Numbered from the stretch's first letter, positions 2,976-40,529 are shown. The stretch: DNA of 64,000 nucleotides from Tubulanus polymorphus (GCF_964204645.1 NC_134027.1:13548485-13612484), one strand, 5' to 3'. Numbers and translations are program-made. Notes: a model not told the origin generated them from the sequence alone.

Positions 2976-3782
2976 TTAGAAATATACCTTGTTGACAGCG
3001 AGTTCGGTGAATGAAACAGAAACAATTACACAGAAACCCATCATGGAAAGTTTCTTTCTGGTGTTTGTTAATTCATCAAATGGAATTATAATATCTAGGT
3101 TTAAATAATTTACAATCTTATTTAAAAAGAATTCATAATTTATTGAATCTGTTATTCTATTTTCCAAATAATACATTAATATTTGTTTGAATATTTTTTT
3201 TATATTTTTCATATCTTCTTCTGTTAATTTAGGTTTTTCATAATAATCGTTAAATAATAAATATAAATACATTTTCTTTTGTTTTGTGTTAAATGTTGAC
3301 GGAATAATTGTTTTTATAATATCTTTTTTTGTTATTTCACCATTTTTATTTTCTATCATTTTCATTTTTTCAAGCCATTGCATATATTCTGGTGTATGAT
3401 CTTCTATAGAAAATATTTTAAAAATTTCATCAAGATAATTTAATTTTGGATCTATGAGAAAATTTCTAGTTTTTTCTTCACCCAATAAATTCTTTTGCCA
3501 TCCACATTCATTACAAAATAACACAGTACCTTCTTGCCCTAAGGTCGCATAACTACATTGTGGACATTTTCGTTTATAATTTATTGGTAATAGATCTTCA
3601 TTAAGCTCTTGGTATTTTCTTACGTTTTCTTTATGTTTTATTGTTCTATTATGTAGATTTGAATTACTTGTTGTAATAATCAATTTACAATATTTACAAT
3701 AATATGTTTTTCTTGTTAATTCATTATATTGTTTTTCTAACTTTTCAACTGTTTCCTTATTATCTGGTAACGTTTTCTCATA
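2976..3782 (-). pseudogene. Poxvirus VLTF3-like late transcription factor, 5' frameshifted and 3' truncated
   Basis: CPQC..CNECG zinc ribbon, then a helical region with IKKIFKQI and SINYEFFLNKIV resembling the VLTF3 C-terminal motif; the last ~25 aa run into unrelated DNA. Confidence 0.55.
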
Positions 3783-3793
3783 TTTTATTTTTT

Positions 3794-4225
3794 CTAATAA
3801 ATTATTTTTTCTTTCATTGAATTCAGTTTCAATTTATTAGAAATTTTATCTATATGTGCTTTACGAAATTGATGATTCTCCCAATCTTCTATATTTTCAG
3901 GGTTATATTTTATTCGACAAGGCTTACAGAAATGATCTTTTATATTATCCTTGTCATAGAATAAGAAAGGTCTTTTCCAAATAATTTCAGGTTCAACTTC
4001 AACAGAATTACTATTACTTTCATTACTATCAACATTAGCCGTTGCACCATTAATTTTACATTTCTCTGAATGTTTTTTAACATAATTACTTGAGAATAGT
4101 TTATTACATTTTGGGCAGTTTAGTTTAGGGGGTTTATAATTTTCTTCATGTTTTTTCATATGTCGAGCCATATTACTTTTTCTTAGAAGTTCACCACAAA
4201 TTTCGCATGCTATCTTCTCATCCAT
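3794..4225 (-). CDS. C2H2 zinc-finger protein (Polinton accessory)
   Basis: CEIC..HMKKH, CPKC..HSEKC, CKPC..H..H; TAAATG start. Confidence 0.8.
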   Translation of the reverse strand: MDEKIACEICGELLRKSNMARHMKKHEENYKPPKLNCPKCNKLFSSNYVKKHSEKCKINGATANVDSNESNSNSVEVEPEIIWKRPFLFYDKDNIKDHFCKPCRIKYNPENIEDWENHQFRKAHIDKISNKLKLNSMKEKIIY

Positions 4226-4293
4226 TTATTTAGGAAAAATTTTATTAAAATTAATTTTTAGTGATGAGCGGTAATTTTTTTATGTTATAAATA

Positions 4294-5055
4294 ATGGTAG
4301 AATTAAAAGAATACAGAATATTTGTTGATTCTAGAAAACTTACAAATTATAAATCACATAATTTACTAGTACAATTAGATAGAGAATTTAAGAATTGTGT
4401 AGATTTAAAATTAGTTAATATAAGTTTATGTAATTCTTTTTATAATATATCGAATAAAACTATTGAACATAGAGCCTTTTTAATTTTTGATAAAGGTAAA
4501 AATGAATGGTCCTATATATATTTAAAACCGGGGTTATATAATTTAGATACATTAGCACAAGAAATTAATAGAAAAGCCTGGCACAAGTTAGGTAGTAGTT
4601 CTGGGTTTAGTATTAGATTTTTAAAAAGTGAGAGTTCTGATAGAATAAAGATAAGGTTGTCTAATAGTGAAAAACATAAATTTATGGTAAAAAAACCTAT
4701 AGCTAAACTGTTAGGAATTCTTCCAGATAGATCTTTTAAAAATATTGACGCTACTACACCAAACTTAATACCTTACACACATTTCTATATTTATTGCAAT
4801 TTAATCGATCCTACAAAAACATTCGAAGCAACTAAAGATATAACTTGTAATTCTGGTTTACTAAACATTTTACCATTGAAGAATGTTAAAGAATTTGGAA
4901 CGCAAATAAATTATAATTTAACAGAATGTGATTTCAAACCTTGTATTCCACATTTCAATAATTTTAAATTAGAAATAAGAAATCATAATGGTTATTTAAT
5001 TGATTTGAATAACTTTCCTGTAATTTATGAATTAGTTATAAGATGTAAAGAGTAA
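4294..5055 (+). CDS. Putative minor capsid (penton) protein
   Basis: IFVDSR N-terminus, LKPGLYN, FYIYCNLI and IRNHNGYLIDLNN C-terminus typical of Polinton/PLV pentons; 253 aa. Confidence 0.75.
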   Translation: MVELKEYRIFVDSRKLTNYKSHNLLVQLDREFKNCVDLKLVNISLCNSFYNISNKTIEHRAFLIFDKGKNEWSYIYLKPGLYNLDTLAQEINRKAWHKLGSSSGFSIRFLKSESSDRIKIRLSNSEKHKFMVKKPIAKLLGILPDRSFKNIDATTPNLIPYTHFYIYCNLIDPTKTFEATKDITCNSGLLNILPLKNVKEFGTQINYNLTECDFKPCIPHFNNFKLEIRNHNGYLIDLNNFPVIYELVIRCKE

Positions 5056-5071
5056 TTTTTTCACTATATAA

Positions 5072-5413
5072 ATGAATATAACTGTTGGACCGAGTATATG
5101 TTTTGGATTTGATTTTAAACGTGAGAAAGAAATAAGAATTAAACTAAATGATGTAATTACTGATATAAAAAGTAAATCATTTAACAATGCATTAATGATT
5201 AATAAAGAAAATTATAATATAGAAAAAGTAATTGATTTAATTAAATCACCTTTAAAATATTATGAATTAAATGAAGATGGAATTATTGATGATATTAAAA
5301 ACATATTAACCGAAATATATGATAATCATAAAAGTAATAATGAAATAAATGTTGATTTAATCATAAATAAGTTAACTAAATATTTTGATGATAGTAATTT
5401 TTTTGATAAATAA
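5072..5413 (+). CDS. Polinton hypothetical protein (113 aa)
   Basis: Open ORF with TAAATG start in a compact gene array. Confidence 0.65.
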   Translation: MNITVGPSICFGFDFKREKEIRIKLNDVITDIKSKSFNNALMINKENYNIEKVIDLIKSPLKYYELNEDGIIDDIKNILTEIYDNHKSNNEINVDLIINKLTKYFDDSNFFDK

Positions 5414-5635
5414 ATGAGTGATAAAAAGTGGATAATAACTGGATTATATAATGGAGCATTACTATCAGTTGGAACTGTTGGTTACTCAATGGTATTAAAA
5501 AAAGTATTTAAAATGGGAAGTGTTAATGTTGATAGATTTGATATAAATGATATTTTAAAATTAACATTAGCAGTTACTTTATCTAATTTAACTATTGATT
5601 ATTTAGAAAAACAAAAATATATTCCTCCCATATAA
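5414..5635 (+). CDS. Small hydrophobic protein (73 aa)
   Basis: Two hydrophobic segments; homologues at 1-167 and 37976-38196. Confidence 0.7.
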   Translation: MSDKKWIITGLYNGALLSVGTVGYSMVLKKVFKMGSVNVDRFDINDILKLTLAVTLSNLTIDYLEKQKYIPPI

Positions 5636-5659
5636 ATGCGTAATTATTTTACTAAATAA

Positions 5660-6082
5660 ATGGCTTCTGCAATTATAACTATTATAGGATCGGCAATTGT
5701 TAACGCTTTAGCATTTACTGGTGGCGGTTATTTATTTAAGCATATTGATAAAAATAGTTCATTAGGAGAACAAAGAAGACATAATTTAGCATTAGAGAAA
5801 TATAATAAAGCAGCAGAAGAATACAGAGAAAAGAGACAAAACTATATGGATTACATCAATAAAGAATTATATGATCAGAAGATTTCACATAGAGATTTTC
5901 AATCAGTTGATGATGCAATGAGTTTATATAACGCGGTAACCAATAAAGAAAAATTACATCTATACAAACCTAAATTATCAGATTATGATACCCCAAGTAA
6001 AGAACAACAGAAATATGAAATAATATGGATTTTAGGTGGAACAGTTATTGTTATATTTGTTGCTTATAAGTTTACTAAGTAG
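5660..6082 (+). CDS. Putative membrane protein (140 aa)
   Basis: N- and C-terminal hydrophobic helices around a coiled coil; homologue at 38221. Confidence 0.75.
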   Translation: MASAIITIIGSAIVNALAFTGGGYLFKHIDKNSSLGEQRRHNLALEKYNKAAEEYREKRQNYMDYINKELYDQKISHRDFQSVDDAMSLYNAVTNKEKLHLYKPKLSDYDTPSKEQQKYEIIWILGGTVIVIFVAYKFTK

Positions 6083-6101
6083 TAATTTTTTTTCTAAATA
6101 A

Positions 6102-6536
6102 ATGGAAGATAAAGTTGATAATATTGATATTATTCCTCATGATATAAATAAAACTAAATTAAAAATATATTTAGAAAAACAAATATTAGAATTTGAAAGT
6201 GACTTAAAGATAAAAAAGAAAAAATGTTTAAAAAGTAAAATTATATATTATTTGATTATAAGTGGTTCAGTTACAATTAGTTCTGTAATAACATTTTTAG
6301 CAATATTCAGTCCATTAACACCTTTAGCTATATCAATTGGTGTATTAGGATTAAGTTCAAGTGTTTTAACTGGTATAAGTTCAAAATTAAATATAAAAAG
6401 TAATAAAGAAAAAATTAAAACTAATATAAAAGAAATTAATAAATTAAAGAACACACTAGATTATATAATAAGTTTAAATGGTCATAAAACAGTTGAAGAA
6501 CAAGATAAATTATTAGAAGAATTAATAAATTATTAA
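6102..6536 (+). CDS. Putative two-TM membrane protein (144 aa)
   Basis: Central hydrophobic hairpin flanked by coiled coils. Confidence 0.7.
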   Translation: MEDKVDNIDIIPHDINKTKLKIYLEKQILEFESDLKIKKKKCLKSKIIYYLIISGSVTISSVITFLAIFSPLTPLAISIGVLGLSSSVLTGISSKLNIKSNKEKIKTNIKEINKLKNTLDYIISLNGHKTVEEQDKLLEELINY

Positions 6537-6552
6537 TTTTTTAATTATATAA

Positions 6553-7875
6553 ATGGCAGATAGTTTTCCAAAAGCTTTCCAAAATAATAAATGAATTAAA
6601 TATAATATTCCTGCAATAGATTTTAATAAAGATATAACATATAGAAATGAAGTTTTAAATTCATTAATTGATTTATATATTTATGTTACTGAAAGTAATA
6701 ATTTTCATGTAAAGATGGAAAATATATTTCATGTGTATACAATTAATTTCAAAAATTTCAATGAGGCAAAACAATGGTTATTAACATCTAATATGAAGTA
6801 TTGGCAGAACCAATTAAATTTTGCGGTTTATTGTGCAACAACAGGTTGTGGAATTAGTTGGAATGATCATTTAAACAAACCAAGTTTACCATTGATGTTA
6901 TCACTTTTTGGATTTCATACATATTTTCAAATAAAATTAATATTAGATGAATTAGAATGTCCTTTACCAGGTTCAAAATATTTTAAAGAATTGAATAATA
7001 ATATTAATTTTTCTAAGTTTTATAAAATATGTAATGAATTTAATATTAATTCAAATAAAGATTTTAGAGCAAAAATTGGAACAATGGGTGGATTAGGAAT
7101 ATTGTATACTAAAGAATTTGGAAAAATAATGACAAATTCAGATATAAGAACACTAAATTGGAATGAATTACCAAAATATTATGAAAATATACAACAACAA
7201 AATAATAATGGTTGGGTTTATTTCATTTTAGAAAATAGTGAAGGTTTTACTAAAGCTGGTATACAAAGAATAAATCAATCTATTAGAACTTATTTGATAT
7301 GTATTTTAGGTGCACAAGTTAAAACAAGATCACCAATAGTTGGAAATGATAACACTTCATTCGATGCACAGAAACAATTCAAAGTATTATTTGAAGATTC
7401 CATTCATAATGATAAAAATAGATCGATTCCAGAAAACATTGTAAGATATCAAAATTATTTAGATAAATCACATATTAGATTAAATTATTGTATAGGCCCT
7501 AATCTATTAATTATTTCTAATGATTTAGTATTAAAGATGGGAAATATAATTGGTTACAATAATCCAATTAAAACTGCAACAATTAATAATTCATTTGGAT
7601 TAAATGATATAAATAAAAAGATTATTACTGCTCCAAAATTAATGGAAGGTGAAAAAAATAAAAAAAATATTCAATCAACAGAAACTAAAACTAAGAATAT
7701 TGAATTAAATAGTGATTCTAAACCGGATTATAATACATCAGAAAATATTAAAACTGATAATATTCAACATGATATAATTAAAACTGATAATGATAATAAA
7801 TACCATGAAAATACTAAATTAGCTTTAACTTGTATAGGAATTGTTATAGGAGGAATATTATATTTTAAATTTTAA
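6553..7875 (+). pseudogene. Polinton hypothetical protein with C-terminal TM anchor; likely start at 6553 with an early lesion
   Basis: TAAATG at 6550-6555; ORF 6715-7875 contains WQNQLNFAVYCATTGCG and ends LTCIGIVIGGILYFKF. Confidence 0.65.
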
Positions 7876-7891
7876 TTTTTTTATTATATAA

Positions 7892-9355
7892 ATGGATGTA
7901 GAAGGTGGAGAAGATATTGGAATAGATCCTTTTGATGAACCTGGTATAACTGATGAACAACAACCTGATTTTAGTGAAACAAGTTTAAATGATGGTAATG
8001 AGCCAGAATATAATAATAATTTAAATATGCCTGATTACATTAAAAATGCAGAATCACAATTAAATCCTGAAAATTTAGACCCAGATTTAGTAAAACAAGA
8101 TTTAGATAATTTAAACAAAATACCTAAATTAAAACATATAATTGAAAATTCTGAATTTAACATAAATGATGAAGACGTTGGACCTTTAGCATATAAATTA
8201 AAATTTTTAGATAATGGTAAATGTTATTATCGCTTGAAAGGTGATTATTATATTGATATCACTTATAAAAATAATAAAAAGAAAATATTAGCAGAATCAA
8301 CTTTAAAAAAATTAGAACCAGATAAAATCAAAATAATAAGTAATAGTAATGAAATAACTGATGTTACGCAAAAAGAAAGAGATGATAATATAGACGTATT
8401 TGAACAAAGAATTAATGAATTATTTGAAATAATCAAAAAGAAATCAGAAACAGAAAAAACTTCTGAACAGAATATAACTTCCAAAACTAGTAAACTTAAA
8501 TCAAATAAAGTTTCAATTGAAAAACTTTTACCGAATGGATTAATTGATGCAACAGATCAACAATTAGAAGATTTAAATAATATATTTTCTGTTGAAGCAA
8601 TTAGAGAAATTAAAAGTATAAGACTTGCATCTGATAAAATTGCACATGATAAAAGTATAAGAGATTTTAAAATTAGAACTTTAGAAAAAGAATTAACTGA
8701 TAAAAATAAAGAAATAGAACAATTAAACTCTGATTTAGATCATCAAGTAATTGATGAAATGGAATATAGGCAAAAAGAATTACGTTTAGAAAAAGAAAAA
8801 GATGATTAAGAATATAACATAGAATTACAAAAAGAAGAAATTAAATTATTGTTAAAATCATATGATTATAATATTAATAGATTAAAAGTTATTTCTAAAG
8901 ATTTGTTGATAAAACCAAATTCTGAAATATCATTAAAAGATAGAATAAAGTTATTATTTAAATTAGAAGGAATAACAATTCTTTCAATTCTAACAGCTGT
9001 AACTCTGTTATTTACAACAATAGGTTTAGCAATATCAAATGCTTTGAAATCTACTCCTACTCCCAATAAACCAGATAAACCCCCGAATGATAATAATTCT
9101 ATACAAGATAAAGTTAAAGATGGTTTGAAGAAATTAGCAAAATATTTATGGGAACGATCTAAAAAATCTGCTGCAGCATTACCAGGAATTATTGCATCAA
9201 TTGTTGGCTTTATATTGAAATCTGCAGGAAACATTATTAACTTTGCTGCTGAACATATTATTTTATTTTTAATTACAGTTGTAAGTGCTATTATTTTTGG
9301 GTTAGTGAATATGATATCAAAAAGATATCAAGAAAAAATAATAAAAAATAAATAA
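7892..9355 (+). pseudogene. ~487-aa acidic/coiled-coil protein with C-terminal hydrophobic helices, split by a nonsense codon
   Basis: TAA at 8807-8809 corresponds to TTA in A2, joining the 305-aa and 168-aa ORFs in frame. Confidence 0.8.
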
Positions 9356-9375
9356 TTAATTTTTTTGTTTAATAA

Positions 9376-10611
9376 ATGAGTGGGAGTTATATAAGTCCTT
9401 CTAAGATTTCTAGAATATCTAATGCTATTAAAGCAGAAAGATCACATCATATAATTACTCATAATCCTTCAAATATTAATCCCGATGAAACTTTATATGT
9501 TAGAATTCCTAGATTAACACAAAATACTTTTTATGTTCCAAATAGTATTTATTTATCAGCTGATATAAAAGTTATTGGTCATGATAATAATTATGTTGTT
9601 GATAATGTTGGGAGATATTTGATTAAAAAATTAACTCTAAAGATTGGTCCAGAAACAGTTTTCTCATTAGATGATTATAATTTATTTATGCATTATAAAG
9701 ATGTATGGTTAACTAAAGAAAATAGAAATAATATGATATTTCAGGGTATTCAATCGGAAAACCATAATAAATTAAGATCAGGAGCTAATGACGCAATAGT
9801 AACTCGTGCCACAGATAATTTGATAAAAAAGATTTATGGAAGCAAATATAGAATTCCATTAGACTTTGAATTGATAAATAATAATGCACCTTTATATAAA
9901 TATGTAATTCAAGAAGATATTATATTTGCTCCTGTAAATGAAATTGTATTATCTAGCGTTGTTAAAGATATGGGATATAAATTATCGAATATATGTTTAG
10001 AATATGACACAGTAACTAATGAAAATATTGCTAGCACAATTCAAACTCAATACAATCAAGGATTTTCATTATTATATGATTATATTGATAAATTTAAAAC
10101 TGTAACTATTAATGCAAATGATGAAATAATTAATGAGAATATTAACTTCCCAAGAAGATCTATTAAAGGTATATTAATATTTTTTACCATTGCAACATAT
10201 TCTAATGGTGCAATAAAGGTTGATAATTATTATAATCCTGAAATAACAAAAGTAGAAATAACTATCGAAGGTATAGCAAATAAAATATTTTGCCAGGGAA
10301 TGAGAATGATAGATCAGTGGCCAGAAATTAGAAAACATTTTATGAATGAAAAAGTAAAATCATTTGAAAATTGTAATATTAATCAAATTGATTATTATAC
10401 CGGCAATAAATACGCACTATGGTTAGATTTTAGAACAACAGAGGATAATTCATTACATGGTTCTGGGAAAAAACTACAAAATACTAAAGATGGAATACAA
10501 TTATTCATGGCAAAGAAAAGAGGAGACAAAAATTTCAAAATGCACATTTATATTATATCTGAGGCTCAATTAAATATTGTAAATTCACAATTAGATAGTA
10601 TTCAATATTAG
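9376..10611 (+). CDS. Putative double jelly-roll major capsid protein
   Basis: 411-aa beta-rich ORF next to integrase and ATPase; lacks a short in-frame segment present in A2 (QITF). Confidence 0.7.
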   Translation: MSGSYISPSKISRISNAIKAERSHHIITHNPSNINPDETLYVRIPRLTQNTFYVPNSIYLSADIKVIGHDNNYVVDNVGRYLIKKLTLKIGPETVFSLDDYNLFMHYKDVWLTKENRNNMIFQGIQSENHNKLRSGANDAIVTRATDNLIKKIYGSKYRIPLDFELINNNAPLYKYVIQEDIIFAPVNEIVLSSVVKDMGYKLSNICLEYDTVTNENIASTIQTQYNQGFSLLYDYIDKFKTVTINANDEIINENINFPRRSIKGILIFFTIATYSNGAIKVDNYYNPEITKVEITIEGIANKIFCQGMRMIDQWPEIRKHFMNEKVKSFENCNINQIDYYTGNKYALWLDFRTTEDNSLHGSGKKLQNTKDGIQLFMAKKRGDKNFKMHIYIISEAQLNIVNSQLDSIQY

Positions 10612-10641
10612 AAATATAAAGTTAAAATTAACGATATATAA

Positions 10642-11770
10642 ATGGGTGGTAAAAAAACTCCTAATACTAAAGAACAATATTTAAGAAATTTATATTACAA
10701 CCCTGAGAGTTCGGTTGCTTATTCTTCTACCAAAAATATATGGCGTCAAGTAAAACAAGATAAATTAGATAAGATAATCCCACAAAATGTAGTTAAATAT
10801 AAAGATATAAATGAATTTATGTTAGAACAACCAACATATACAACACATAAAAAAATTGTTAGAAAATATAAAACTCGTAAAACTATGGTAAGTTATGTAG
10901 ATCAACAGTGGCAAGGAGATTTAATTGATATGAAAAATGTTAAGAAAGATAATGATGATTATTGGCGGATATTGAATATAATTGATATTTTTAGTCGTTA
11001 CGTATGGAGTTTCCCACTTTATAGAAAAGATGCTGTACAAACATCAAATGTTTTAAGAAAATTTCTTTCGGATGATAAACTAAAACCAGAAAAAATACAA
11101 TTTGATGATGGAAAAGAGTTTGATAATTCACTTGTTCATGAACTCTTAGATAATCATAATATTGAATATTTTTCAACAAAATCGGATAAAAAAGCAGCAG
11201 TTGTTGAACGATTTAATAGAACATTAAGAACAAGAATGTGGAAATATTTCACAGCAAATAATACTTTTAAATGGATTGATGTTTTACCAAAATTGATAGA
11301 AGGATATAATAATTCTTATCATTCTTCTATTGGAATGAAACCTATTGATGCTAGAAAACCTGAAAATGCTGAAATTGTTTGGAATAATTTATATGGAGCA
11401 TTTCTTTTAGATGATTTTGGTGAACCTAAATTTAAAGTTGGTCAAAATGTTAGAATTTCTAAGTATAAAAAGATATTTGATGAAGGATACGATCGAAATT
11501 TTACTAGGGAAATATATAAAATAAAAAAGGTAATAACAACAAAACCATATGTCTATAAATTAGAAGATTTAGATGGTGAAGAAGTTGATGGCTACTTTTA
11601 CGAAGAAGAATTAAGTTTAACTACAGAAAATCTAGAACAAGAATATAAAATTGAAAAAGTATTAAAAACCAAAACTATTAAAAGAAAAAATATTCTTTAG
11701 TAAAATGGGTTGGATGGCCAGATAAATTCAATGAATGGATATTATCAAGTAAAATTAAAAATATATAAAT
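10642..11770 (+). pseudogene. Retroviral-like (rve) integrase with chromo-like C-terminus, frameshifted near 11690
   Basis: QWQGDLID, IDIFSRY, QFDDGKEF, VERFNRTL (DDE); YKIEKVL..LVKWVGWPDKFNEW after the shift. Confidence 0.93.
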
Positions 11771-12377
11771 TAATAAGGAATTATTTATATTTGAGCCTCA
11801 TAATATGTTAATTTCTGGTGTAACAAATTGTGGAAAAACTTATTTTATATTAAATTTATTAGAAACTGTTCATGAAAACTATTTTGATAATATAGTATTA
11901 TTTTGTCCAACATATGAATTTAATCAAACTTATGATAGAAATATTACTAGAAATAATAAATTTATTATATTAGATCCTAAAACAGTAAAAGAAAATTTAG
12001 ATAATTGAATCAAAATAGCAATTGATATTTATAAAGGATCAAATACATTATTCATCATAGATGATTGTGCTAATCTACATGATTCAAAAGTTAGAGAAAG
12101 TGAGTTATGCTATTTAGCTTTTTCTGGCAGACATTTTGGGATAACAACTTGGGTTTTAAATCAAAAATATAATTCAATTGTTAAAGACTTTAGAGAAAAC
12201 ATTGGATTTCTAGTTTTATTCTACAATAAAGATAGAAAATCGATGAAAAATGCACTTGAGGAAAATGATATTATTCCACATGATTTACATAATGAATATA
12301 TGGATAAGTTGAAAAATATTAAAAGATCAAAATTACTATTTAGATTACAACACCCATTTAAATATGAATTTATTTAA
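11769..12377 (+). pseudogene. A32/FtsK-HerA-like packaging ATPase; start mutated, internal stop
   Basis: Walker A GVTNCGKT, Walker B FIIDD, SGRHFGI; TGA at 12006 is TGT in A2. Confidence 0.9.
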
Positions 12378-12650
12378 ATTCAACTGGTTCGTTAATCTAG
12401 TATATTTTTAGTTACATTCTAGTTGAATTCTAGTTATTAGTAGTTGGAACAAAAATCAACTAGATTTAACAATATTCTAACTAGCTTGTTAATCTAGTAT
12501 ATTTTTAGTTACATTCTAGTTGAATTCTAGTTATTAGTAGTTGAAACAAAAATCAACTAGATTTAACAAGAAATAAATAAAAACAACAATATTTCAACTA
12601 GCTTGTTAATCTAGTTGAATTCTAGTTACATGCTAGTTGAATTCTAGTTG
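12378..12650. repeat. Intergenic CTAG-core repeat array
   Basis: Repeated ttctagtt/aatctagt/aactag units in 2-3 ~110-bp blocks; same array at 43537-43812. Confidence 0.85.
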
Positions 12651-12681
12651 CAACAACACAAATAATTTATTTGTTATATAA

Positions 12682-13287
12682 ATGAGAGGTGAAAAGAAAA
12701 TAAAATCCAAAAATGGTGATGTTCCAATTGAAAAAACTTTAGATGATTTAGGAATAACAGAAAACAAATTAATTCCAGATGATGGTGCTTTAAATAATGT
12801 TACAACAAATAATAATTATGAATATTATCTTTATTGTAAACATCAATTAGAAATATTAATAGCATCTGGAAAATGTAAAAATTTTGTCGGTAAAAATTTA
12901 ACTTATAATGAATTAGATACAATGAAATCAGATGAAATTATTAGATTATTTAAGATTTATGAAGCCGCGAGAACAGCTAGAATTAATGACGCGATATCAG
13001 AAAATGTAGTAAAAGGTTATAGTAAATTATGTAATTATATACTTCCAATTGAAGATGAAAATAGATTATATTCCGATTTAAAAAATGATTATTTAGTTAT
13101 GACTAAATTAAATAAATGGATTGGATATTTATCATTTCAATTGGGCGGATTTATGACATTATTATCAACTGGAGTTATAACATTTTCAAATATTGAGAGT
13201 AAAAATATTTCTATAATAAATGAGCGAGGTGGAAGAAGTGAAGGAATTAACTGTGAAGAAAAAACCGAGAACTCAGAAACAAATTGA
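12682..13287 (+). CDS. Polinton hypothetical protein (201 aa)
   Basis: Homologues at 43842 and in family B (~29140-30830). Confidence 0.75.
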   Translation: MRGEKKIKSKNGDVPIEKTLDDLGITENKLIPDDGALNNVTTNNNYEYYLYCKHQLEILIASGKCKNFVGKNLTYNELDTMKSDEIIRLFKIYEAARTARINDAISENVVKGYSKLCNYILPIEDENRLYSDLKNDYLVMTKLNKWIGYLSFQLGGFMTLLSTGVITFSNIESKNISIINERGGRSEGINCEEKTENSETN

Positions 13288-13615
13288 ATGGTCTCGGCAA
13301 TAAGGAATTAAATCACAAGAATATAAAAAAGCTGTAAAAGAAAAAATAAGTAATAAAAATGTTAATAAAAATGGTGAAAATATTGTTATTTCTACTCCTT
13401 CTAATGATAGAATATTTGATAAATGTCTATATTTTACAGTTGGATTTGTAATTGTATTCATTTTGATTGGGTGTAATTGGTATAAGAAATCAAATAAAAT
13501 TCATGATATTAATAATTCTGAAACAACTGCTATCAAAAATCAAAATACTTCTGAAATTCCAAAATTGATAATAAAAAAGTGGATTAATATTTTAGAAAAA
13601 AAACAAAAAAAATAA
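13220..13615 (+). pseudogene. Homologue of the 126-aa single-TM protein
   Basis: Matches 44379-44759; internal TAA. Confidence 0.75.
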
Positions 13616-13617
13616 TT

Positions 13618-13694
13618 GAATATCTCACTACTTTTGTCTATCTATGCGGAGCAATTAAATTGTCCAGATAAGTCATTTCGGATTCTAGATATTT
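13618..13694 (+). other. Conserved structured non-coding motif
   Basis: AATATCT/AGATATT closing stem, TATCT/AGATA inner stem and apical hairpin; also at 44762, 27311 and inverted near 28720-28797. Confidence 0.55.
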
Positions 13695-14220
13695 ATTATT
13701 TTTATTAATTTATCTTGTTTTTTTAATTTGAAGTTTTTCTTGAATATTGTATTACAGTCGTTTCTTATTATTAGTTTTTTCTTAAATTGAAAGATGGCAG
13801 CACTGGGTGTGATGCTAAAATGAATATTTGAATTTGAATTTGAATTTGTTAATCAATTAACATGGTAATTGATTACTAATTTGATTTAAAATTATATCAT
13901 AATTAAGTTAAAAATCCATATTTCATTTATCAGTTTTCATTCCTATATTCTTTTCATTCGGAATAATTTATAATTTCAAATTTCACATATTTCTTTAGTA
14001 AACACCAACAACATTTACTTTAGCTAAGGTGTTTTAGCTAAGTATATAAGGCAATTCATTCCAACGCTGGAGTAGCTCTGACCAGCAGAGGCATTTTGGC
14101 ACAGGGGTGCTCACCGTGATCTGGAGATAGCATCAACCGCAACGTATTTCTGAAGATAAAATCAACCGCAACATTTACCGTGATCTGGAAGGCTGGGCTA
14201 GCGCAGAAGCTACCCGCGAT

Positions 14221-15349
14221 ATGGATTTAACTAGAGCCAAGTCGTGGTCGAACGACATGGAATACGCTAGATCGATAGAACTTTTTCTTGTTGTCAGGAA
14301 AATCGGACTTAATGTGAAAGATGTTCAGGAATTTTTTGGAAGAAGCCTTGAAAGATAGAACCTTTAAGGCTTGCGTTAGGAAAGCTGAAGACTTCACTCC
14401 GTTCAATTATGGAATTCATTGCAAAGATCAAAACGCTTTTGACCTCCTTAAGAACCACGATTTGCAGATCAAAGATAAAACGGTTACACTTCGTGCGCCG
14501 AAGGAAACGCCGACAATTATACGGATAGAGGGAGTACCATCCAACTGCCCTCACAGTGTAATCGATGAAATTCTGAGTGGATACGGTACTATATTAAACA
14601 GAACATACCACCCGACTTTTGCGAAGACAGACATCGAAAATGCCGCAAAAAGAATTACCGAGATGTCGATATCTAAAGCTATCCCTAGGAATATAGCAAT
14701 GAAATCAGCTAACGGACTTGTGCTAATTCGAGTTTACTATAGCGGTCAGCCGGAACATTGTTTATTGTGTAATAACTTCAACCACACGTGGGTCGAATGT
14801 AAGGAAGCAAGTTGTACGCATCCTACCCATCCACCGCATAAATGCCGCCAATTGTTTCACCGAAATGCTCAACAGAATCGACAGTACGAACTACAGTACC
14901 CGACGATCGAACAAACTTCAACGAAACCGACAGTGGAAGATTGCGAAAAACGTAAAAGGGCTTCGCTTTCTTCATCCGACGAATCTGCGCCACAAACACC
15001 AAGGAAAAAATCGATACAGGACAAAAATACCGTCAATTGCGATAGCGGACCATTGAACGAATTACAGAATAAGTTACATTCTGTAATCAACCAAAGTTCG
15101 AACACTTCTCTTAATGGAACAGACCGCGAAAGTGACTTTCTCCGCAGCGCAAGTTTTGAAGGGCTAACGACCAACCAACTCAACAGAGAACAAGACACTG
15201 ACAATAAACGGTTAAAGGAAATGTACAAAGTAAGGGGAAAATTAACGTCGAACCCCTCGTCAGAAGACATTAAAACGCTGAAACATCGTATCTCAGCGAG
15301 AGAAGAGGAAATAACCCGCCGTAAAGCCAAAATCAACAAGAAGAAATGA
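14221..15349 (+). pseudogene. Tx1 ORF1 (gag-like, zinc knuckle); probable 1-nt frameshift in the T-run near 14335
   Basis: IRIEGVP, YSGQPEHCLLCNNFNHTWVEC (CCHC); upstream ATG at 14221 is out of frame by one base. Confidence 0.8.
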
Positions 15350-15545
15350 CTAAGCGGTAAGAGAATTGTACCAAAGCGCACTGATTTTGCCATTGAATAC
15401 TTGAACATTAGACCTTTTAGGTATATTTGGGAAACTGAAATGCTAAACAGATTAATTGAACAGGCTTCGAAAACTCTCTCGGTTTGTGATATTAGGAAAA
15501 TTGTTACAAAGTATGAAATGATTAATTCTTGTAAACCTCTGTAAG

Positions 15546-18500
15546 ATGGCTACTGATGGTATGAAAATAGCGAGTCTCAATTGCAATGGACTCGTAGCCT
15601 CCAAAATCAAAAGACTCAATATTTTTGATCGGCTAAAGCATTTTGATATATTTCTCCTCCAGGAGACGCATATAAGGAATGAGGACGAGGCAAAAACCCT
15701 CTTTAAAAGTATAAGTAAAGAATACGAAATTTTCACCAATAATAATATTAATCGTATTAATGGGGTAGCAATCGGGATAAGTAGAAAATCTCATTTCGAC
15801 CTGGGGCATTGTACCAGAGATACACAAGGTCGCGGAATATGCTTAAAATTATTGATCGGTAATGAGAGATATAAAATAATCAATATATACGCTCCAAGTA
15901 AAGATAGGCAAAAGAAAGAGTATTTTCAATCAATTCCTGATCTTATTGGTAACGCTGAAAACACGAAGTTAATTATCGGTGGAGACTTTAACTGTATAGA
16001 AAATTATTCCCTAGATAGACAATCAGCTCATTCCAACCCTAAGGCAACATATGGCGCTGAACAATTAGCCCAATTGTGTAGTTCATATTGTTTAGAGGAC
16101 CCATTCAGGGCCTTAAACCCTGCAAAGAAGGTTTTTACTAGATTAACTAATGTCAATAATACAATTACTATGACTAGAATCGATAGATTCTATGTCTCTC
16201 AATGTGTCACTAGCGATATAGAAACAATAGCGCACTTAAATTCAATCCATTCAGATCACAAACTAGTGTCAATGACTATTCGCACAAACCAACCACCAAA
16301 AGGCAAAGGATTTTGGCATCTAAACAATGACCTTTTGAATAACGAAGAATATATCGAGCTAATAACCAACACTTGGAGCAAGTGGCAAAAACACAAAGTT
16401 TTGTATGATAACATCCTTCAGTGGTGGGATGACGGTAAAAAGTTAATCAAATCTAAGTCTACCCAATTCTCTAAAAAACTTGCCAAATCTAGAAACGAAC
16501 TGAAACGCAGACTCGAAAATGAACTTTATGTTTTGGAGAGCCGAGCAAGTGAAGGTCTGAATTATAATCGTAATAGACTAAAAGATATTATAACAATAAT
16601 CAAACAAATTGATGATAATAAAACGAAAGGTAACATGATAAGAGCCAAAATAGAATGGAGAGAGGAAGGCGAAAAAACATCCAAATTTTTTGCAAATTTA
16701 GAAAAACGAAGAGGAAAAATTAATCGTATAAACGGCCTTTATAACGATTTCGAGGAACTTAAAACTGACCAAAATGATATAATGGATATTGAGGTTAGCT
16801 TTTATAAAAAACTATACACTAGAGAAGTAACCAATCCCGTTACTCAAGAACGATTCTTACACAATTTACCACAAGTCCAAAACCCAGAGATAATCGATGG
16901 ACCGATCACGCTTGAAGAATTAACAAATTCGGTTAAATCGTTTAAGCTAGACAAGTCGCCGGGTATTGATGGATTGTCTAGCAATTTTTATGTTCAATTT
17001 TGGCCAATTCTGAAATACGATTTCCACGAAGTCGTGTGTGAATGTATTCGTTTAAATACAATTACAGAATCTATGAAAATTGGCGTAATCACTCTCATAC
17101 ACAAAAGGGGGGAAAGAACACGCTTAGGAAATTGGAGACCGATTACTTTACTTTGTACAGACTATAAGATTATAACTAAAACTATTTCAAATAGGTTAAT
17201 TACTGTTTTGACAGATATTATTGATCCTGATCAAACATGTAATGTTAAAGGTAGACGGATCCATGACAATTGTCACATAATCCGTGACCTAATCCAGTAT
17301 ACCAACGATGAAAATATTGAGGCCTTTCTATTAGCGATCGATCAGATGAAGGCATTTGATCGAGTAGATTGGTCATATATGTTCAAATCCCTGAAATCGT
17401 TTGGCTTCGGCGAAAATATAATCAAATACATCGAAATGTGTTATTCTGATCCCAAGTCTTTGATTAAAAGTAATGGTTTCCTTACAAATCCATTCTCTCT
17501 TGAACGAGGAGTAAGACAAGGATGCCCAATGAGTGCGCTTCTCTATATTATTGTAGCTGAAACCTTAGCAATTAGAATAAGGCGCGATCCAGAAATTGAG
17601 GGTATCACCTTGCCAAACGGGGAAGTGTGTAAAATGAAACAATATGCTGACGATACAACCCTAACCGTAACAAGTATTGAATCAATCAAGAAACTTTTCC
17701 ATGTTTTAACGGAATTTGAGCAATCTTCTGGAGCCAAAATAAATAAAGAAAAGACGGAAGGTTTATGGATTGGTGCCTCCAAGAATAGAACGGATAAACC
17801 CCTAAACCTAAATTGGTCAAACAGACACATAAAAATATATGGCATGTATTTTGGTCTTGGTGACATCGATAAACTTAATTGGGAACGAAAGATTAACACA
17901 ATTACAAACATAATAAATCAATGGCGACAGACTAAACTGTCGTACAAAGGCAAACGGGTAGTTATTAATTCGTTCATTTTACCTGTCTTATGGTATGTCT
18001 CAGAAATTTATCCTATACCCAATATTTACGTCGAACGTATTCAGAAAAAAATTAACGATTTTCTTTGGTCTTATGGTAAACATTATGTAAGAGCGGAGAT
18101 AATCTATCAACCCTTAAGCAGTGGTGGATTAGCAATTAATAACATTAGTTGTAGAGTAATGGCCCAAAGGGCACGAACTATCCTAGTAGAAATGAATCGA
18201 GGATCTAAATGGAGAACATTACTGAATTATTATCTTAATCAAGTGCTAGGACAGGGCTGGTCGATAGATTCCCTTATAAATGAAAATTTCATAAATAGAG
18301 AAACTCGGAATTCATACTACAAAAGCCTTTTAACCGCGTGGAAGTATGTTATGGCTCTCGTTGAACCGAAATGGTCGAAGCACGATATTAAGAATAACTT
18401 AGTGTTTAATAACCCCTCAATAACTGTCAATGGTAGGACCTTGAATTATCCAGAATATACTGACATAGGTTTAACAAATATCAAGCATTTCTTCGATGAA

Positions 18501-19361
18501 TATGGTAATTTCAAAGATATTGATAATTTTACGCCGATATTAGTAGACGAAGGAAAACACAGCCGAATTTACGCTGCTATACCTCGCGAATGGCGGGTCA
18601 CCCTGGGTGACGAAACCATTGATGATAATAAAAAATCAGCTTACACAATTAAAATACAGAACTATAGAAAACCATTAGCTGATACTTCGATGCGCGAAAT
18701 ATATAATGCCATAGTCCATGCAAAATTCGGCCACATAAAACCAATTAGTCAAAATAAAATCCAAACAATTCTAAACGAACATAACATAAATTGGGCTCAA
18801 ATATGGGGAGACATTTATCATCCAATAACTGAGAATAAATTAGGGGATATGCAATGGAGGTTTCTACACGATACCCTAGCTACAGCAACTAAACTCGTGA
18901 CATGGCAAGTTTCTAACGACCCTACCTGTAAAATATGCGGCCGTGCAGCCACTAATACGCATGTCATAATTGAATGTCCGGCAGCTGTAAGACTTTTTAC
19001 TAGATTTCAAACGATAATAGCTCAGGTAGCAGAACAACCAGCCCTCTTAACTAAACGTACAATTTGTTTTGGTTTTTCTAAACAAGCGATCATAAATCCA
19101 CACAGTAGGCGTATATGTAACTATTTGATAACGGTCTTGAAATGGACACTGTATAAGAATCATCGCAAGGCATGCGCAGGAGAAACTGAACTAGATATGA
19201 AAAATTATGCTCGTAATTTTATAGCCAAACGATTGAAACAGGAGATTACGGCCAGGAAAAATATTAATGTTTGGACTCAAAATGAAACACTGATCAGATG
19301 CAACGGAAATAATTACTTTATAAATGAAATAGCACTCAGTACGATTAATGATATTTTGTAA
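15546..19361 (+). CDS. Tx1 ORF2: AP endonuclease + reverse transcriptase + C-terminal Zn finger
   Basis: SLNCNGL, LLQETH, GGDFN, SDH; KSPGIDG, WRPITLL, GVRQGCP, QYADD; CKIC..H....C; intact 1271 aa. Confidence 0.97.
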   Translation: MATDGMKIASLNCNGLVASKIKRLNIFDRLKHFDIFLLQETHIRNEDEAKTLFKSISKEYEIFTNNNINRINGVAIGISRKSHFDLGHCTRDTQGRGICLKLLIGNERYKIINIYAPSKDRQKKEYFQSIPDLIGNAENTKLIIGGDFNCIENYSLDRQSAHSNPKATYGAEQLAQLCSSYCLEDPFRALNPAKKVFTRLTNVNNTITMTRIDRFYVSQCVTSDIETIAHLNSIHSDHKLVSMTIRTNQPPKGKGFWHLNNDLLNNEEYIELITNTWSKWQKHKVLYDNILQWWDDGKKLIKSKSTQFSKKLAKSRNELKRRLENELYVLESRASEGLNYNRNRLKDIITIIKQIDDNKTKGNMIRAKIEWREEGEKTSKFFANLEKRRGKINRINGLYNDFEELKTDQNDIMDIEVSFYKKLYTREVTNPVTQERFLHNLPQVQNPEIIDGPITLEELTNSVKSFKLDKSPGIDGLSSNFYVQFWPILKYDFHEVVCECIRLNTITESMKIGVITLIHKRGERTRLGNWRPITLLCTDYKIITKTISNRLITVLTDIIDPDQTCNVKGRRIHDNCHIIRDLIQYTNDENIEAFLLAIDQMKAFDRVDWSYMFKSLKSFGFGENIIKYIEMCYSDPKSLIKSNGFLTNPFSLERGVRQGCPMSALLYIIVAETLAIRIRRDPEIEGITLPNGEVCKMKQYADDTTLTVTSIESIKKLFHVLTEFEQSSGAKINKEKTEGLWIGASKNRTDKPLNLNWSNRHIKIYGMYFGLGDIDKLNWERKINTITNIINQWRQTKLSYKGKRVVINSFILPVLWYVSEIYPIPNIYVERIQKKINDFLWSYGKHYVRAEIIYQPLSSGGLAINNISCRVMAQRARTILVEMNRGSKWRTLLNYYLNQVLGQGWSIDSLINENFINRETRNSYYKSLLTAWKYVMALVEPKWSKHDIKNNLVFNNPSITVNGRTLNYPEYTDIGLTNIKHFFDEYGNFKDIDNFTPILVDEGKHSRIYAAIPREWRVTLGDETIDDNKKSAYTIKIQNYRKPLADTSMREIYNAIVHAKFGHIKPISQNKIQTILNEHNINWAQIWGDIYHPITENKLGDMQWRFLHDTLATATKLVTWQVSNDPTCKICGRAATNTHVIIECPAAVRLFTRFQTIIAQVAEQPALLTKRTICFGFSKQAIINPHSRRICNYLITVLKWTLYKNHRKACAGETELDMKNYARNFIAKRLKQEITARKNINVWTQNETLIRCNGNNYFINEIALSTINDIL

Positions 19362-19812
19362 GGCCAGAAAAGAGCGTTTAGGTTTCTGTAAATAGCAATT
19401 AAATCGTTTTATACATACTATACATGTGACTGTGAATGATGACTTGATATCTCTATACTAGACAAAAGTATTCCTATTTTGTAAATATAAAGAATAATTT
19501 GTGTCATTACGGATAATGTGTAAATATTGGAAAGAATTAAACGATGTATGTATGATGTGTAGTGAAATGTTCCAGTTAACGCAGTTTGAATTGTCTTCTT
19601 AATATACATATACGACTGTTACTAACCAGTGTTAATGAATAACGTTTAAATCGAATTGAAAAGAATTAAATATACATTTATGATTGCTTGGAATATGATG
19701 TAAATACCTCCAGTCCCCCACCTGACTCCAGTGGGTGTGATGTAGTTGTTATGGAGCCTTCCTTTTGTTAAATAAAGTTAAAAAAAAAAAAAGAAAAAAA
19801 AAATTTTGAAAA

Positions 19813-20012
19813 TGCACCTTCGTCACTCTCCGGGTTTCTCCTTCGGTTTCGAATTTCGAGATTGGTAGAAATTACATTAGGCGCCTTTAATATAATGTGA
19901 TTTCTGCCAATCATTGAAGGAGATCCCGGTTGACGTGGGTCGCGGGGGTGTAAGTAGAAATGACGGGGGATAAGCGTCCAGCAGCGCCTTTCAATAATGG
20001 GATGCTTATCCC
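19813..20012 (+). ncRNA. Candidate structured RNA, A1 copy
   Basis: Same stems as 45237-45437. Confidence 0.4.
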
Positions 20013-20262
20013 CTGAAAACTCTGTAGGTCGAGGATAGGGCAATTTTGCTAAAACTAACCGTAAAAACATTGAAATATTCCTTTTAATCACGAGAGAGAA
20101 TGACTATCCTCCTGTCCTGTGTGTGTTGTATGTACTGCGTTATAACTGCTATAACAACAACGTTGAATTGCAACACCTGATGTTTGACTGTATGATTGTA
20201 GTTGTTTGTAAAACGACTAAGGTTATTTTGGATTCTAGATATTCATTATTTTTATTTTTTAT

Positions 20263-20589
20263 TTAATCAACAATTTCTAAATCATGATGACCGTCTTCAT
20301 TTTTCCCATGATAGATTATTTTAAATCCTTCTAAATCTTTTAATTCCTCTGTACTCAATGAAACCCATTTATCAGGTAAAAACACTTTAAATTCTCGCGA
20401 TGTACTAACATTACAGTAGCTTAAATTCGCTGATACTTTCTCTCCATATTTAGTTTTTATCTTTTCTAATTTCAATATTTTATGTTCAATTTCTTTTGTA
20501 ACATCAATTAACTTTTTTATTTCAAATTGTTTTTTTGCTGGTTTTATTCTGTTATTTATTGTTGCTAAGAATGCTTTTCTATCTCCCAT
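20263..20589 (-). CDS. Polinton terminal 108-aa protein
   Basis: Almost identical ORF at 45741-46067; start codon lies within the TIR. Confidence 0.8.
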   Translation of the reverse strand: MGDRKAFLATINNRIKPAKKQFEIKKLIDVTKEIEHKILKLEKIKTKYGEKVSANLSYCNVSTSREFKVFLPDKWVSLSTEELKDLEGFKIIYHGKNEDGHHDLEIVD

Positions 20590-20674
20590 TTATTAGGAAA
20601 AAAAATTACTTGTGGTGATGAGTGGTGTCTCGTCCTCTCGTCCTCCGATCTGAAACCCACATCTTCCAATTACT
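20584..20674 (-). repeat. Right TIR of A1
   Basis: Reverse complement of 33060-33148 with few mismatches. Confidence 0.9.
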
Positions 20675-21209: not shown

Positions 21210-22404
21210 TATTTAAATCATTTAACTTAATTCAATAATTATTTGACTATTTAATTTATTTTTAATGTAGAATTGTTACTCTTTACTCCAGTTTTTATGT
21301 TTAATTGTTTGGTAATGCTTTGATTTATGTGAATTTGAATATTTACCTCCGCAATAACAATGAATTTTTTCATTAGGATTAAATCTTTTGAATTCATTTT
21401 CTAAATCACATTGAATTGTAATATCTTTAAAAGATTTACTATTTCCTAAATCACGCTGAATTGCAATATCTTTAAAAGAATTATCTTTTTCTAAATCACA
21501 TTGAATTGCAATATCTTTAAAAGAATTATTGTTTTCTATATCACATTAAATTTCAATATTTGATGTATTTTCATTATAAATAATTTGTTTATCATCAAAA
21601 TTACAATAATATAATTGTCGTTTTTCAATTCTTAAGTCTATCCTATCATTACCTCTTGAAAGTATTATATCACTTTCTCTTTCATTAAAAGGAAATTTAA
21701 GAATATTTATTATGTTTTCATCTAAATTACCTTTATAATTTAAAAACTGTATTAAATATTTTTGGATTTTTGGCACCATTATCTAAAGTATCTATTAGTT
21801 CAGTAATTAAATATGTTTCATTTAATAATATTTGATTAATTACAGTAATATCATAAATTTTATATTGTCTTCCATACACTAAATATTTTGCTGAGATACA
21901 ATTTTTAATGTTAAATAGTGAAAATAATTCATTAAATTCTTTTATTTCAATTTTAAATTCCATTTCTTCTTTCATTTATATAGCAAAATTATTACTCACG
22001 CTTTACTCACACTTTTAATATTGAAAATCTAACTTATTTTACTCACACTTTACTCACACTTTTAACATTGAAAATCTAACTTATTTTACTCACACTTTAC
22101 TCACACTTTTAATATTGAAAATCTAACTTGTTTTACTCACACTTTTAATATTGAACAATTTTATCATTTTATTAGTGCTTTTATATTAAAAAGTTTCTTT
22201 ATTTTTGGAAAAGAGCAAAAAAAAATTTGATTTTTTCTAAACTTATTTTTATTTCTTAATTTGCTGATACTTTCTCTCCATATTTAGTTTTTATCTTTCC
22301 TAATTTCATTTATTCTGTTATTTATTTTTGCTAAGAATGCTTTTCTATCTGCCATTTATAAGGGGAACAAATTATTTGTGGTGATGAGGGCTGTCTCGAC
22401 CTCA
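21210..22404 (-). mobile_element. Remnant right end of a further Polinton (C): degraded minus-strand ORF, deleted 108-aa homologue and partial TIR
   Basis: 22255-22354 resembles the 108-aa gene; 22352-22404 resembles the TIR; TAAATG starts at 21975 and 22355. Confidence 0.65.
21990..22155. repeat. Tandem repeat, ~47-bp unit containing tttactcacac, about 3.5 copies
   Basis: Direct inspection. Confidence 0.85.
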
Positions 22405-30830: not shown

Positions 30831-31190
30831 TGATGATGTTAAGAAGAAGCCTAGATCTGAGAAACAAATTAAATGGACAAGGGTATTGGGTAAAAGATCT
30901 GCAGAATTAAAAATAGCTTAGAAAAAGAAATTAACTGATATAAATGAATCACAGAAATTATCTGTTATTGATTCGAATGATAATCCATCGGATTCTTCTA
31001 ATGCTGGAAGTAATAATAAATTAAATATTAAAATTGGATTAGTAACAGTTATTATATTTTCCGGTGTAATATATAAATATAAGTATAAATCTGATGAAAA
31101 TGATAATGATGATTATGAACCTATTATACCAGGAAATAAATCAAATGATGAAGTCATTGAAACTAAATCTAAATTATTATTAATGGATTA
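30826..31190 (+). pseudogene. Family B homologue of the 126-aa single-TM gene
   Basis: MSDDVKKKPRSEKQIKW similar to VKKKPRSQKQIEW. Confidence 0.7.
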
Positions 31191-32282: not shown

Positions 32283-32897
32283 AGATTTATTTGTATTTGA
32301 ACCGCATAATATGTTAGTAAGTGGAGTAACAAATTGTGGTAAAACACATTTCATATTAGACTTATTGAAACCATTTATAAGAATCATTTTGATAATATAA
32401 TATTATTTTGCACTACTTATGAAATGAATAAAACATATAATAGAGATATAGTTAAGATAAAAAAGTTCATTATATCAAATCCTAAAATAGTAAAAGAAAA
32501 TTTAGATAATTGTTTTAAAATAGCAATTGATATTTATAAAGGTAAAAAACAAAAAACAAATACATTATTCATTATAGATGATTGTGCTAATCTACATGAT
32601 TCAAAAGTTAGAGAAAGTGAGTTATGCTATTTAGCTTTCTCTGGGAGACATTTTGGGATAACAACATGGGTTTTAAATCAAAAATATAATTCAATTGTTA
32701 AAGATTTTAGGGAGAATATTAGATTTTTAGTTTTATTGTACAATAAAGATAGAAAATCAATGCAACAATCATTGGAAGAAAATCAAATTATACCTACTGA
32801 ATTACATGATGAATATATGAATAAATTAAAAAGTAATAAAGGTTCCAAATTACTTCTGAGGCTTCAATTTCCTTATGAATATAAATTTATAAAATAA
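32275..32897 (+). pseudogene. Family B packaging ATPase
   Basis: GVTNCGKT, FIIDD, SGRHFGI; frameshifted. Confidence 0.88.
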
Positions 32898-40510: not shown

Positions 40511-40529
40511 TTAATTTTTTGTTAAATAA

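Follow-up and report, generated by a model that had tools for sequence, protein, structure and literature searches.

How the Polintons of animals are expressed, and why no particles of them have been observed, are long-standing questions, and a locus of Tubulanus polymorphus raises them in a specific form. The window, by which we mean the whole 64,000-nucleotide (nt) stretch that was analyzed (GCF_964204645.1 NC_134027.1:13548485-13612484), was found by open reading frame (ORF) listing, Pfam searches and self-comparison to contain a number of decayed copies that belong to a single Polinton lineage, with 20-26% GC, among retrotransposons whose kinds suggest that the host is an animal. An initial annotation, made from the sequence alone, had claimed that nearly every gene of this element is preceded by a signal like that of poxvirus late promoters, a T-run followed by TAAATG, and that a helper nucleocytovirus transcribes the element. 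Is this signal real, is it a promoter, and whose polymerase would read it?

The TAAATG signal in the window

TAAATG is present at all 19 of the positions that were named as start codons. The T-rich word said to lie upstream at most of them is found exactly, as TAATTTTTT, in a slim majority (10 of 19), and its spacing is fixed, since it begins exactly 19 nt before the ATG in 10 of 10 cases; a T-run of at least 4 is present at 13 sites. These sites are not all independent. Those at 20589, 33144, 46067 and 59625 are copies of the promoter in the terminal inverted repeats (TIRs), 32275 and 42938 belong to ATPase orthologues and 13220 and 30826 to paralogues, so that about 14 independent sites are left once repeats and paralogues are considered. 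Broken genes are present in each copy in the window, and for this reason the sites at 6553, 13220, 30826, 32275 and 42938 head short frames.

In copy A, the leftmost of the element copies, TAA directly before the ATG (hereafter TAA-ATG) was found at 12 of 14 starts defined by homology, whereas short ORFs of this AT-rich DNA have it at 75 of their 864 starts (8.7%; binomial p 1.4e-11), which bears out the claim of a signal at nearly every Polinton gene. The two misses are a TAAATA-ATG variant before the putative minor capsid gene and the start of the broken ATPase gene. When ORFs of at least 70 amino acids (aa) were chosen without regard to the motif, 19 of 40 in element DNA carried it, fragments of broken genes included, and of 21 ORFs outside it only 2 did (Fisher p 0.004). 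With 0.06 occurrences expected, the window has 16 of the spaced pattern TAATWWTTT-N7-TAAATG, and the 33,864 nt of element DNA have 15, against 0.04 expected under local resampling; the enrichment over the AT-rich background is therefore confirmed. The T at -3 was also correctly noted, and none of five retrotransposon ORF starts that were checked has TAA before the ATG.

Distribution and shape of the signal among related elements

The capsid protein of the element has 533 homologues. With an alignment as query, the best 80 of 288 metagenome loci, together with 3 genome loci, were taken as capsid relatives; searches of IMG/VR returned no capsid relative. In the clade with 50-74% capsid identity (clade A), TAA-ATG was found at 43 of 51 family-assigned starts with fragments included and at 29 of 31 full-length starts, for example at 14/15 in L001 and 7/7 in L002. 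A distant pair, L032 and L042, has it at 5 of 5 starts (4 of 4 full-length). The other groups gave 0/11, 0/19, 0/4 and 3/263, or 3/297 in all, with fragments included, and 0/4, 0/6, 0/3 and 1/56 for full-length starts. Base composition is not the cause of this pattern, because clade A members with 36-44% GC keep the motif (7 of 9 ORFs, against 17 of the 383 ATGs that they have in all), and contigs that are rich in AT (19-36% GC) and were found by way of the intein discussed below show it at 56 of 450 starts.

A promoter profile was assembled from 68-71 promoters in 16 of the 83 capsid loci, the remainder having no TAAATG starts; L003 and L017 were dropped from profiles as near-duplicates. It shows T at -19, A at -18 and -17 and a T-rich stretch from -15 to -10, with T at 0.90 at -12 and 0.74 at -13, followed by a looser spacer, A at -4, the TAA, the ATG and, in 50 of 71, G at +4. 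The T peak thus corresponds to the 9th and 10th nucleotides before TAAAT. The end of a T-run falls 3-9 nt before TAAAT in 43 of 71 promoters, as against 8 of 97 TAAATG that are not starts, and 5-8 nt before it in 38 of 71 promoters. In divergent gene pairs the two TAAATG are separated by 13, 22, 22, 24, 45 and 66 nt, and the spacings of 13-24 nt (in L002 and L009-L011), with divergent start codons no more than 19 nt apart in the tightest case, leave little space for host 5' untranslated regions. In only 2 of 69 cases does the TAA also end an ORF that lies upstream. The rigid two-part spacing, the presence throughout the clade, the independence from AT content and the lack of stop-start overlap support the view that this signal would act like a promoter.

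The vaccinia late consensus has been described as TAAAT(G) over the start codon, the 10th nucleotide upstream being a conserved T (PMC11980589), and the vaccinia late promoter as a T core followed by a 5-7 bp spacer (PMC5294985). Set against these published descriptions, rather than against poxvirus sequences, the poxvirus-late-like shape holds up: as in vaccinia, mpox and salmon gill poxvirus, TAAAT(G) lies on the start codon, T peaks about 10 nt upstream and the spacer is 5-7 nt. The element differs in adding a TAA at -19 to -17, which recalls the intermediate class of poxvirus promoters, and in using the signal for every gene, whereas poxviruses use it for one temporal class. A possible further likeness, avoidance of the early terminator TTTTTNT in coding strands (15 found, 43.5 expected), was rejected: T6 and A-runs are depleted too, giant-virus controls show the same, and copy A taken alone is not significant.

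In the sister clades L015-L018, L024-L025 and L026-L081 an A/T block and TATA stand directly before the ATG. The clades without TAAATG have TATA at most 12 nt from the ATG more frequently than expected by chance, in clade F in 23 of 56 cases against 320 of 8658, a count that includes many near-copy rows, and the ATPase genes are mostly without TATA; by inspection, one clade F gene family has AAAAAAATGAAAG about 30 nt upstream, resembling the poxvirus or mimivirus early core. The late promoter of African swine fever virus is described as TATTT with TATATA at the start site (PMC5294985), and the TATA beside the ATG in the sister clades has the form of this asfarvirus late initiator. A capsid tree was made by a quick method from 40 capsid ORFs of at least 330 aa, out of 117, plus the second copy from the window, with no reference capsids. 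In this tree clade A forms one branch (support 99) with the motif at 15 of 16 capsid starts, and L032 and L042 join a TATA clade (support 96), so that three motif changes are required, either one gain with losses or two gains.

Some relatives show further features. L001 looks intact, with 15 of 15 long ORFs open. L016 carries a Bcl-2 homologue (2448-2861, E 2e-18) and a gene like that for late transcription factor 3 (VLTF3; 6543-7052, E 6e-4). Deoxynucleoside kinase genes are present in L001 (10340-10981) and L007 (2898-3380); that of L001 was tried as a clue to a donor, and with 4 close homologues only and weak matches to two iridovirus-like loci it gave no donor. L081 is a TATA-clade Polinton whose contig is assigned to a metagenome-assembled genome of a bacterium but is probably mis-binned eukaryotic DNA.

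Proposed transcription by a helper virus and its alternatives

Pfam scans of frames in the window and the relatives, all partial elements, gave no match to an RNA polymerase, TBP or TFIIB, a result that divergent factors could escape. The reading that we prefer, and hold to be fairly probable, is that the Polinton is transcribed by a co-infecting nucleocytovirus via the late-promoter-like signal (TAA, T-run, spacer of 5-8 nt, TAAATG) and so would live as a provirophage-like hyperparasite. The initial annotation is partly supported: transcription by a nucleocytovirus is the best reading given the promoter-like signal, the lack of an RNA polymerase match and an intein of giant-virus type. That this virus would be poxvirus-like is less secure, since starts in iridovirus-like genomes have TAAATG as well. 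In the mechanism that we propose, the polymerase and late factors of the helper would recognize the core, and transcription would begin within the AAA of TAAAT, where slippage would add a 5' poly(A) leader. An AAA start, slippage and a 5' poly(A) leader are described for poxviruses and for yeast linear elements (PMC6831550). Such a leader would put A at -3 of the message, which could account for the occurrence of T at this position of the DNA. The element would be silent until the helper infects, with polymerase, integrase and capsids made only in the late phase of the helper, whose late machinery the VLTF3-like gene may tune.

Which helper might this be? A scan of IMG/VR with the element promoter returned 77 loci, of which 13 had their ORFs inspected and the other 64 were counted only. 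By share of TAA-ATG, L158 ranked first (7/9), followed by an isolate that carries genes for MSV199, RNase III and NIF (6/12), which from its gene content we take to be an invertebrate iridovirus, and then by bins with capsids closest to grouper iridovirus. L158, an IMG/VR locus of 11,960 bp in which 7 of 9 long ORFs have TAATAAATG, looks virophage- or Polinton-like-virus-like by eye and has no Pfam match. Among loci fetched regardless of the motif, TAA-ATG was found at 95 of 219 starts (43%) in invertebrate-iridovirus-like loci, at 8/32 and 6/17 starts in two iridovirus-like giant-virus bins and at 4/19 starts in a third bin. In the invertebrate-iridovirus-like genomes (L198-L216, L136, L139), 43% of genes begin with AATAAATG, with A at -9 too, a start signal of which we found no description in the literature for such genomes. 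Their signal differs from that of the element in the frequency of AATAA-ATG (89/95, element 33/68), in the A at -9, in T at -12 (40/95, element 61/68, p 2e-10) and in G at +4 (31/95). The iridovirus-like bin G001 is closer, with A at -16 and a T-rich stretch from -15 to -9 in 8 promoters, and its T at -12 in 5 of 8 is indistinguishable from the element (p 0.07). Late transcription in iridoviruses is believed to rely on a polymerase of their own (PMC5294985). The full geometry of the signal would favor a polymerase of the poxvirus type, and a helper of the iridovirus type appears to be a real alternative. Within the preferred reading, we judge the helper somewhat more apt than not to be poxvirus-like, allow an iridovirus-like virus a considerable though smaller chance, and regard any other kind as improbable.

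Several points weigh against transcription by a helper, or against a poxvirus in that role. The mechanism is deduced from the shape of a sequence. No helper virus was found in the window, in the relative loci or in the IMG/VR promoter scan, no genome-wide search of the host having been made, and none of the 13 inspected loci is poxvirus-like. TAAATG is not specific to poxviruses, because 95 of 219 invertebrate-iridovirus-like starts carry it. The overlap of AATAAA with the initiator and its enrichment after stop codons, described below, would also be expected from a host polyadenylation signal. The intein marks past contact with some giant virus and does not point to the helper, because the match is old and TAAATG is not the start signal of the contigs in which it was found. 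The VLTF3 identification is weak: Pfam matched Pox_VLTF3 to 2976-3383 with E 0.0087, the longer frame did not reproduce the match, and no homologue of the frame was found among 643 candidates or in the relative loci. An Atlas value of 0.80 with 10 of 10 family matches to VLTF3 makes this frame a lead only. The element integrates in nuclear DNA, which a cytoplasmic polymerase would somehow have to reach, a gap that mavirus shares. Finally, the recorded hosts of poxviruses are all vertebrates or arthropods (PMC6831550).

The element might do without a helper if its own VLTF3-like or zinc-finger proteins acted with host TBP to turn on late genes by way of the RNA polymerase II of the host, producing leader-poor starts at TAAAT from the A/T core that they recognize. 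VLTF3-like genes in copy A and L016, the common view of animal Polintons as autonomous, and the overlap of TATAAA with the initiator in part of the promoters all fit this idea. We nevertheless think it unlikely, for the TATA box of polymerase II promoters is found 25-30 nt upstream of the start site (PMC5294985), which would place the start within the coding sequence, and the 13-24 nt divergent spacers are no easier to accommodate. Moreover, the scanned frames have no TBP or TFIIB match, VLTF3 is patchy and was not found among the ORFs of L001, and early genes such as the polymerase bear the same signal, which leaves no early class. A polymerase could also be supplied by an endogenous giant virus or by a non-lytic cytoplasmic linear element in the style of pGKL2-pGKL1, with no hyperparasitism of the usual kind. 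We know of no cytoplasmic linear element of this kind from animals, there is none in the window or the relative loci, and the element has retained capsid, ATPase and integrase. Such elements do offer a precedent, in that yeast replicons whose family B DNA polymerase is protein-primed (pPolB) have an RNA polymerase related to that of poxviruses, initiators of the form TAAAAT and 5' poly(A) leaders (PMC6831550) and are descended from polintons (PMC11071308); however, the yeast promoters resemble the early class of poxviruses (PMC6831550), whereas the core described here is T-rich like the late class, and we hold this source to be highly improbable.

It is also conceivable that the motif serves translation or 3'-end formation, by coupling a stop to the next start, by placing an in-frame stop as a guard before the start, or by supplying the AATAAA of the gene that lies upstream. 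The genes do follow closely upon one another, head to tail; AATAAA overlaps 35 of 71 initiators, and it comes after the stops of 14 of 45 genes, against 250 of 2118 windows. Stop-start coupling and polyadenylation are nevertheless insufficient, because the TAA so rarely is an upstream stop and the motif faces inward inside the TIRs. There, before the first genes, and on both sides of divergent pairs, no upstream gene exists; 36 of 71 promoters lack AATAAA, and the T-run stands upstream at a fixed distance, whereas cleavage elements have it downstream. To this explanation we give the least credence. That the signal is a relic, inherited from helper-dependent ancestors by a lineage that is now a decaying, transposon-like fossil and is never reactivated, is in our estimate very unlikely, and it is compatible with the preferred reading as to the origin of the motif. 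Decay is suggested by the broken genes, by copies that are 91-96% identical to each other by self-BLAST and by the number of DNA reads placed on the window that are at least 99% alike (3,933 of 51,498). Against a relic stand intact-looking relatives such as L001 and the copy number: in one DNA run from the same species the read depth is 158-1041 over copy A and 13-29 over its L1 insertion, a difference which implies at least tens of element copies in the species.

If transcription by a helper is accepted, one would expect no expression in healthy tissue, and the promoter indicates which virus to seek. The provirophage life style would extend from protists to animals, poxvirus- or iridovirus-type viruses yet to be discovered would be predicted in these hosts, and the start-codon context would provide a cheap assignment of helpers across thousands of endogenous Polintons. 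It is possible that the element protects its host against the helper. A wider proposal, which we regard as doubtful, is that a whole lineage of animal Polintons without protease consists of nucleocytovirus provirophages whose initiators keep a record of the helper, with TAAATG clades dependent on undiscovered poxvirus-type viruses and TATA clades on asfarvirus-type viruses, at least one switch between them, and integrated copies serving as an inducible antiviral reserve.

Element genes, intein and comparison with known systems

The features of the window are collected in Table 1. The major capsid protein is a double jelly roll, predicted with a pLDDT of 86.5 and matched by Foldseek (E 6e-16) to the capsids of Singapore grouper iridovirus and Paramecium bursaria chlorella virus 1 (SGIV and PBCV-1). 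The polymerase family is seen more clearly in the relative L077 (DNA_pol_B_2, E 2e-9). A Rap94 match in L018 (E 0.019) was dismissed as noise. No adenain or other protease match was found in the scanned frames, all of the elements being seen in part. The flanks of copy B are AT-rich and resemble a diverged relative, with integrase and ATPase pieces on the left and similar short repeats on both sides, and it is possible that copy B is a nested insertion. Tandem arrays of short AT-rich units adjoin the element at 20676-21217 or lie inside it at 12378-12650.

Table 1. Features of the window, with positions counted from its first nucleotide.
Feature	Position	Strand	Remarks
Polinton copy A	2976..20674		Left part missing, L1/Tx1 insertion inside, TIR at end (self-BLAST, sequence, Pfam)
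VLTF3-like and zinc-finger frame	2976..3800	-	Broken (Pfam, Atlas)
C2H2 zinc-finger ORF	3794..4228	-	TAAATG start; divergent from putative minor capsid gene
Putative minor capsid protein	4294..5055	+	Label inferred; variant start TAAATA-ATG; family in 16 loci; weak DUF5901 match, E 0.003
Promoter-like TAATTTTTT-N7-TAAATG	5053..5074	+	113-aa ORF
Promoter-like element	5395..5416	+	73-aa hydrophobic ORF; sole copy A site with TAA doubling as upstream stop
Promoter-like element	5641..5662	+	140-aa conserved ORF
Promoter-like element	6083..6104	+	144-aa membrane ORF with two helices; in L001 similar to SLATT (E 0.0013)
Promoter-like element	6534..6555	+	Conserved gene, broken in copy A
Promoter-like element	7873..7894	+	Conserved coiled-coil/membrane gene, broken
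Promoter-like element and major capsid protein	9357..10611	+	Double jelly roll, 411 aa
rve integrase	10639..11700	+	TAAATG start, no T-run; PF00665 E 1.5e-9
A32-like packaging ATPase	11766..12380	+	Broken in copy A; Pox_A32 E 6e-6; start scored as miss
Conserved 201-aa ORF	12679..13287	+	TAAATG start
TAAATG start of conserved small membrane gene	13217..13222	+	Broken here; 126-aa paralogue at 44379
L1/Tx1 non-LTR (long terminal repeat) retrotransposon	14098..19824	+	Inside copy A; outside the promoter system
TIR of copy A	20263..20674	-	Inward-facing TAATTTTTT-N7-TAAATG promoter and 108-aa ORF
80-aa ORF with spaced promoter	21733..21994	-	Further element fragment, end at repeat near 22441
Fragment of diverged relative	30720..32900	+	About 74% DNA identity; has TAAATG at 30826 and 32275 and pieces of integrase and ATPase genes
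Polinton copy B	33060..46152		TIRs from AGTAAT; 6-bp target duplication TATGTT on both sides; promoter in each repeat (33144 +, 46067 -)
Protein-primed DNA polymerase B	33144..37905	+	Copy B, in pieces; DNA_pol_B_2 E 3.9e-5 on fragment (Pfam)
LAGLIDADG intein	36418..37482	+	Copy B; 355 aa, at YxD/TD motif of Polinton polymerase
BEL/Pao LTR retrotransposon	49421-56432		LTRs 97% identical (49421-50043, 55822-56432)
Polinton copy C	59543..64000	+	Left repeat with promoter 59606-59627, broken polymerase, extends past window end

The intein has 2,072 homologues. The best 27 comprise 23 RNA-primed family B polymerases (24 with fragments), one topoisomerase (P0138) and two of no assigned family (P0122, P0141), and among the best 150 only 1 has a pPolB-type flank like that of the element's polymerase. 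In the closest relatives the intein sits at this motif too, but in family B polymerases that are RNA-primed, and many of these are in giant-virus bins; in IMG/VR the intein was found in 37 loci, 15 of which are labelled giant-virus bins. The transfer is old, because identity is only about 30-42% over the full length. The intein carrier P0136 was set aside, being T4-like by its matches to structures in the Protein Data Bank and yielding no locus. Homing-endonuclease insertions in Polinton polymerases are known already (PMC11071308), and VLTF3 genes are known from coral polintoviruses (PMC11131425).

With Mavericks/Polintons (Polintoviricetes; 'adintoviruses', PMC8502044) the element shares pPolB, rve integrase, double-jelly-roll capsid protein, A32-like ATPase, TIRs, a 6-bp target duplication and multiple copies in the host genome. 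It differs from them in the lack of a match in its scanned, partial frames to the adenain protease, a trait of group 1 and of adintoviruses, and in possessing a pPolB intein, a VLTF3-like gene and a uniform nucleocytovirus-type promoter at all genes. The word 'promoter' is not mentioned in the available text of PMC8502044, PMC11131425, PMC11296320 and 10.64898/2026.10.13.758929, and we found no report of this promoter in an animal Polinton in a literature search that left subscription journals largely outside. The occlusion bodies of entomopoxviruses are known to contain Polinton-like viruses (PMC11296320), and these (AHEV_PLV1/2, CBEV_PLV1), compared here by description only, resemble the element as Polinton-like, proposed hyperparasites of poxviruses in animals. 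In contrast to the element, they encode adenain and either are without an rve integrase (AHEV_PLV1) or employ a tyrosine recombinase (PMC11296320). The main text of that paper, as available, contains no promoter analysis, and its supplements may bear on this point.

A functional parallel is offered by the pairs mavirus and CroV (Cafeteria roenbergensis virus), Sputnik and mimivirus, and Gezel-14T and PgV (Phaeocystis globosa virus), in which a small double-stranded DNA element, integrating or free and without RNA polymerase, uses promoters of the helper type (10.1101/2022.07.28.501842); a pacmanvirus transpoviron likewise shares its promoter with the helper (PMC11788076). Virophages differ in having protist hosts, helpers of the Imitervirales, TCTA or AAAATTGA motifs and a dependence shown by experiment, whereas the host of the element is likely an animal, its motif is TAAATG and its dependence on a helper is proposed from sequence. 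Nor is the capsid of the virophage type (Lavidaviridae/Virophaviricetes), that of mavirus ranking only 45th-48th by fold match. The sharing of promoters with a helper is thus already known in the virophages of protists, and here it would appear to be carried by a clade of animal Polintons.

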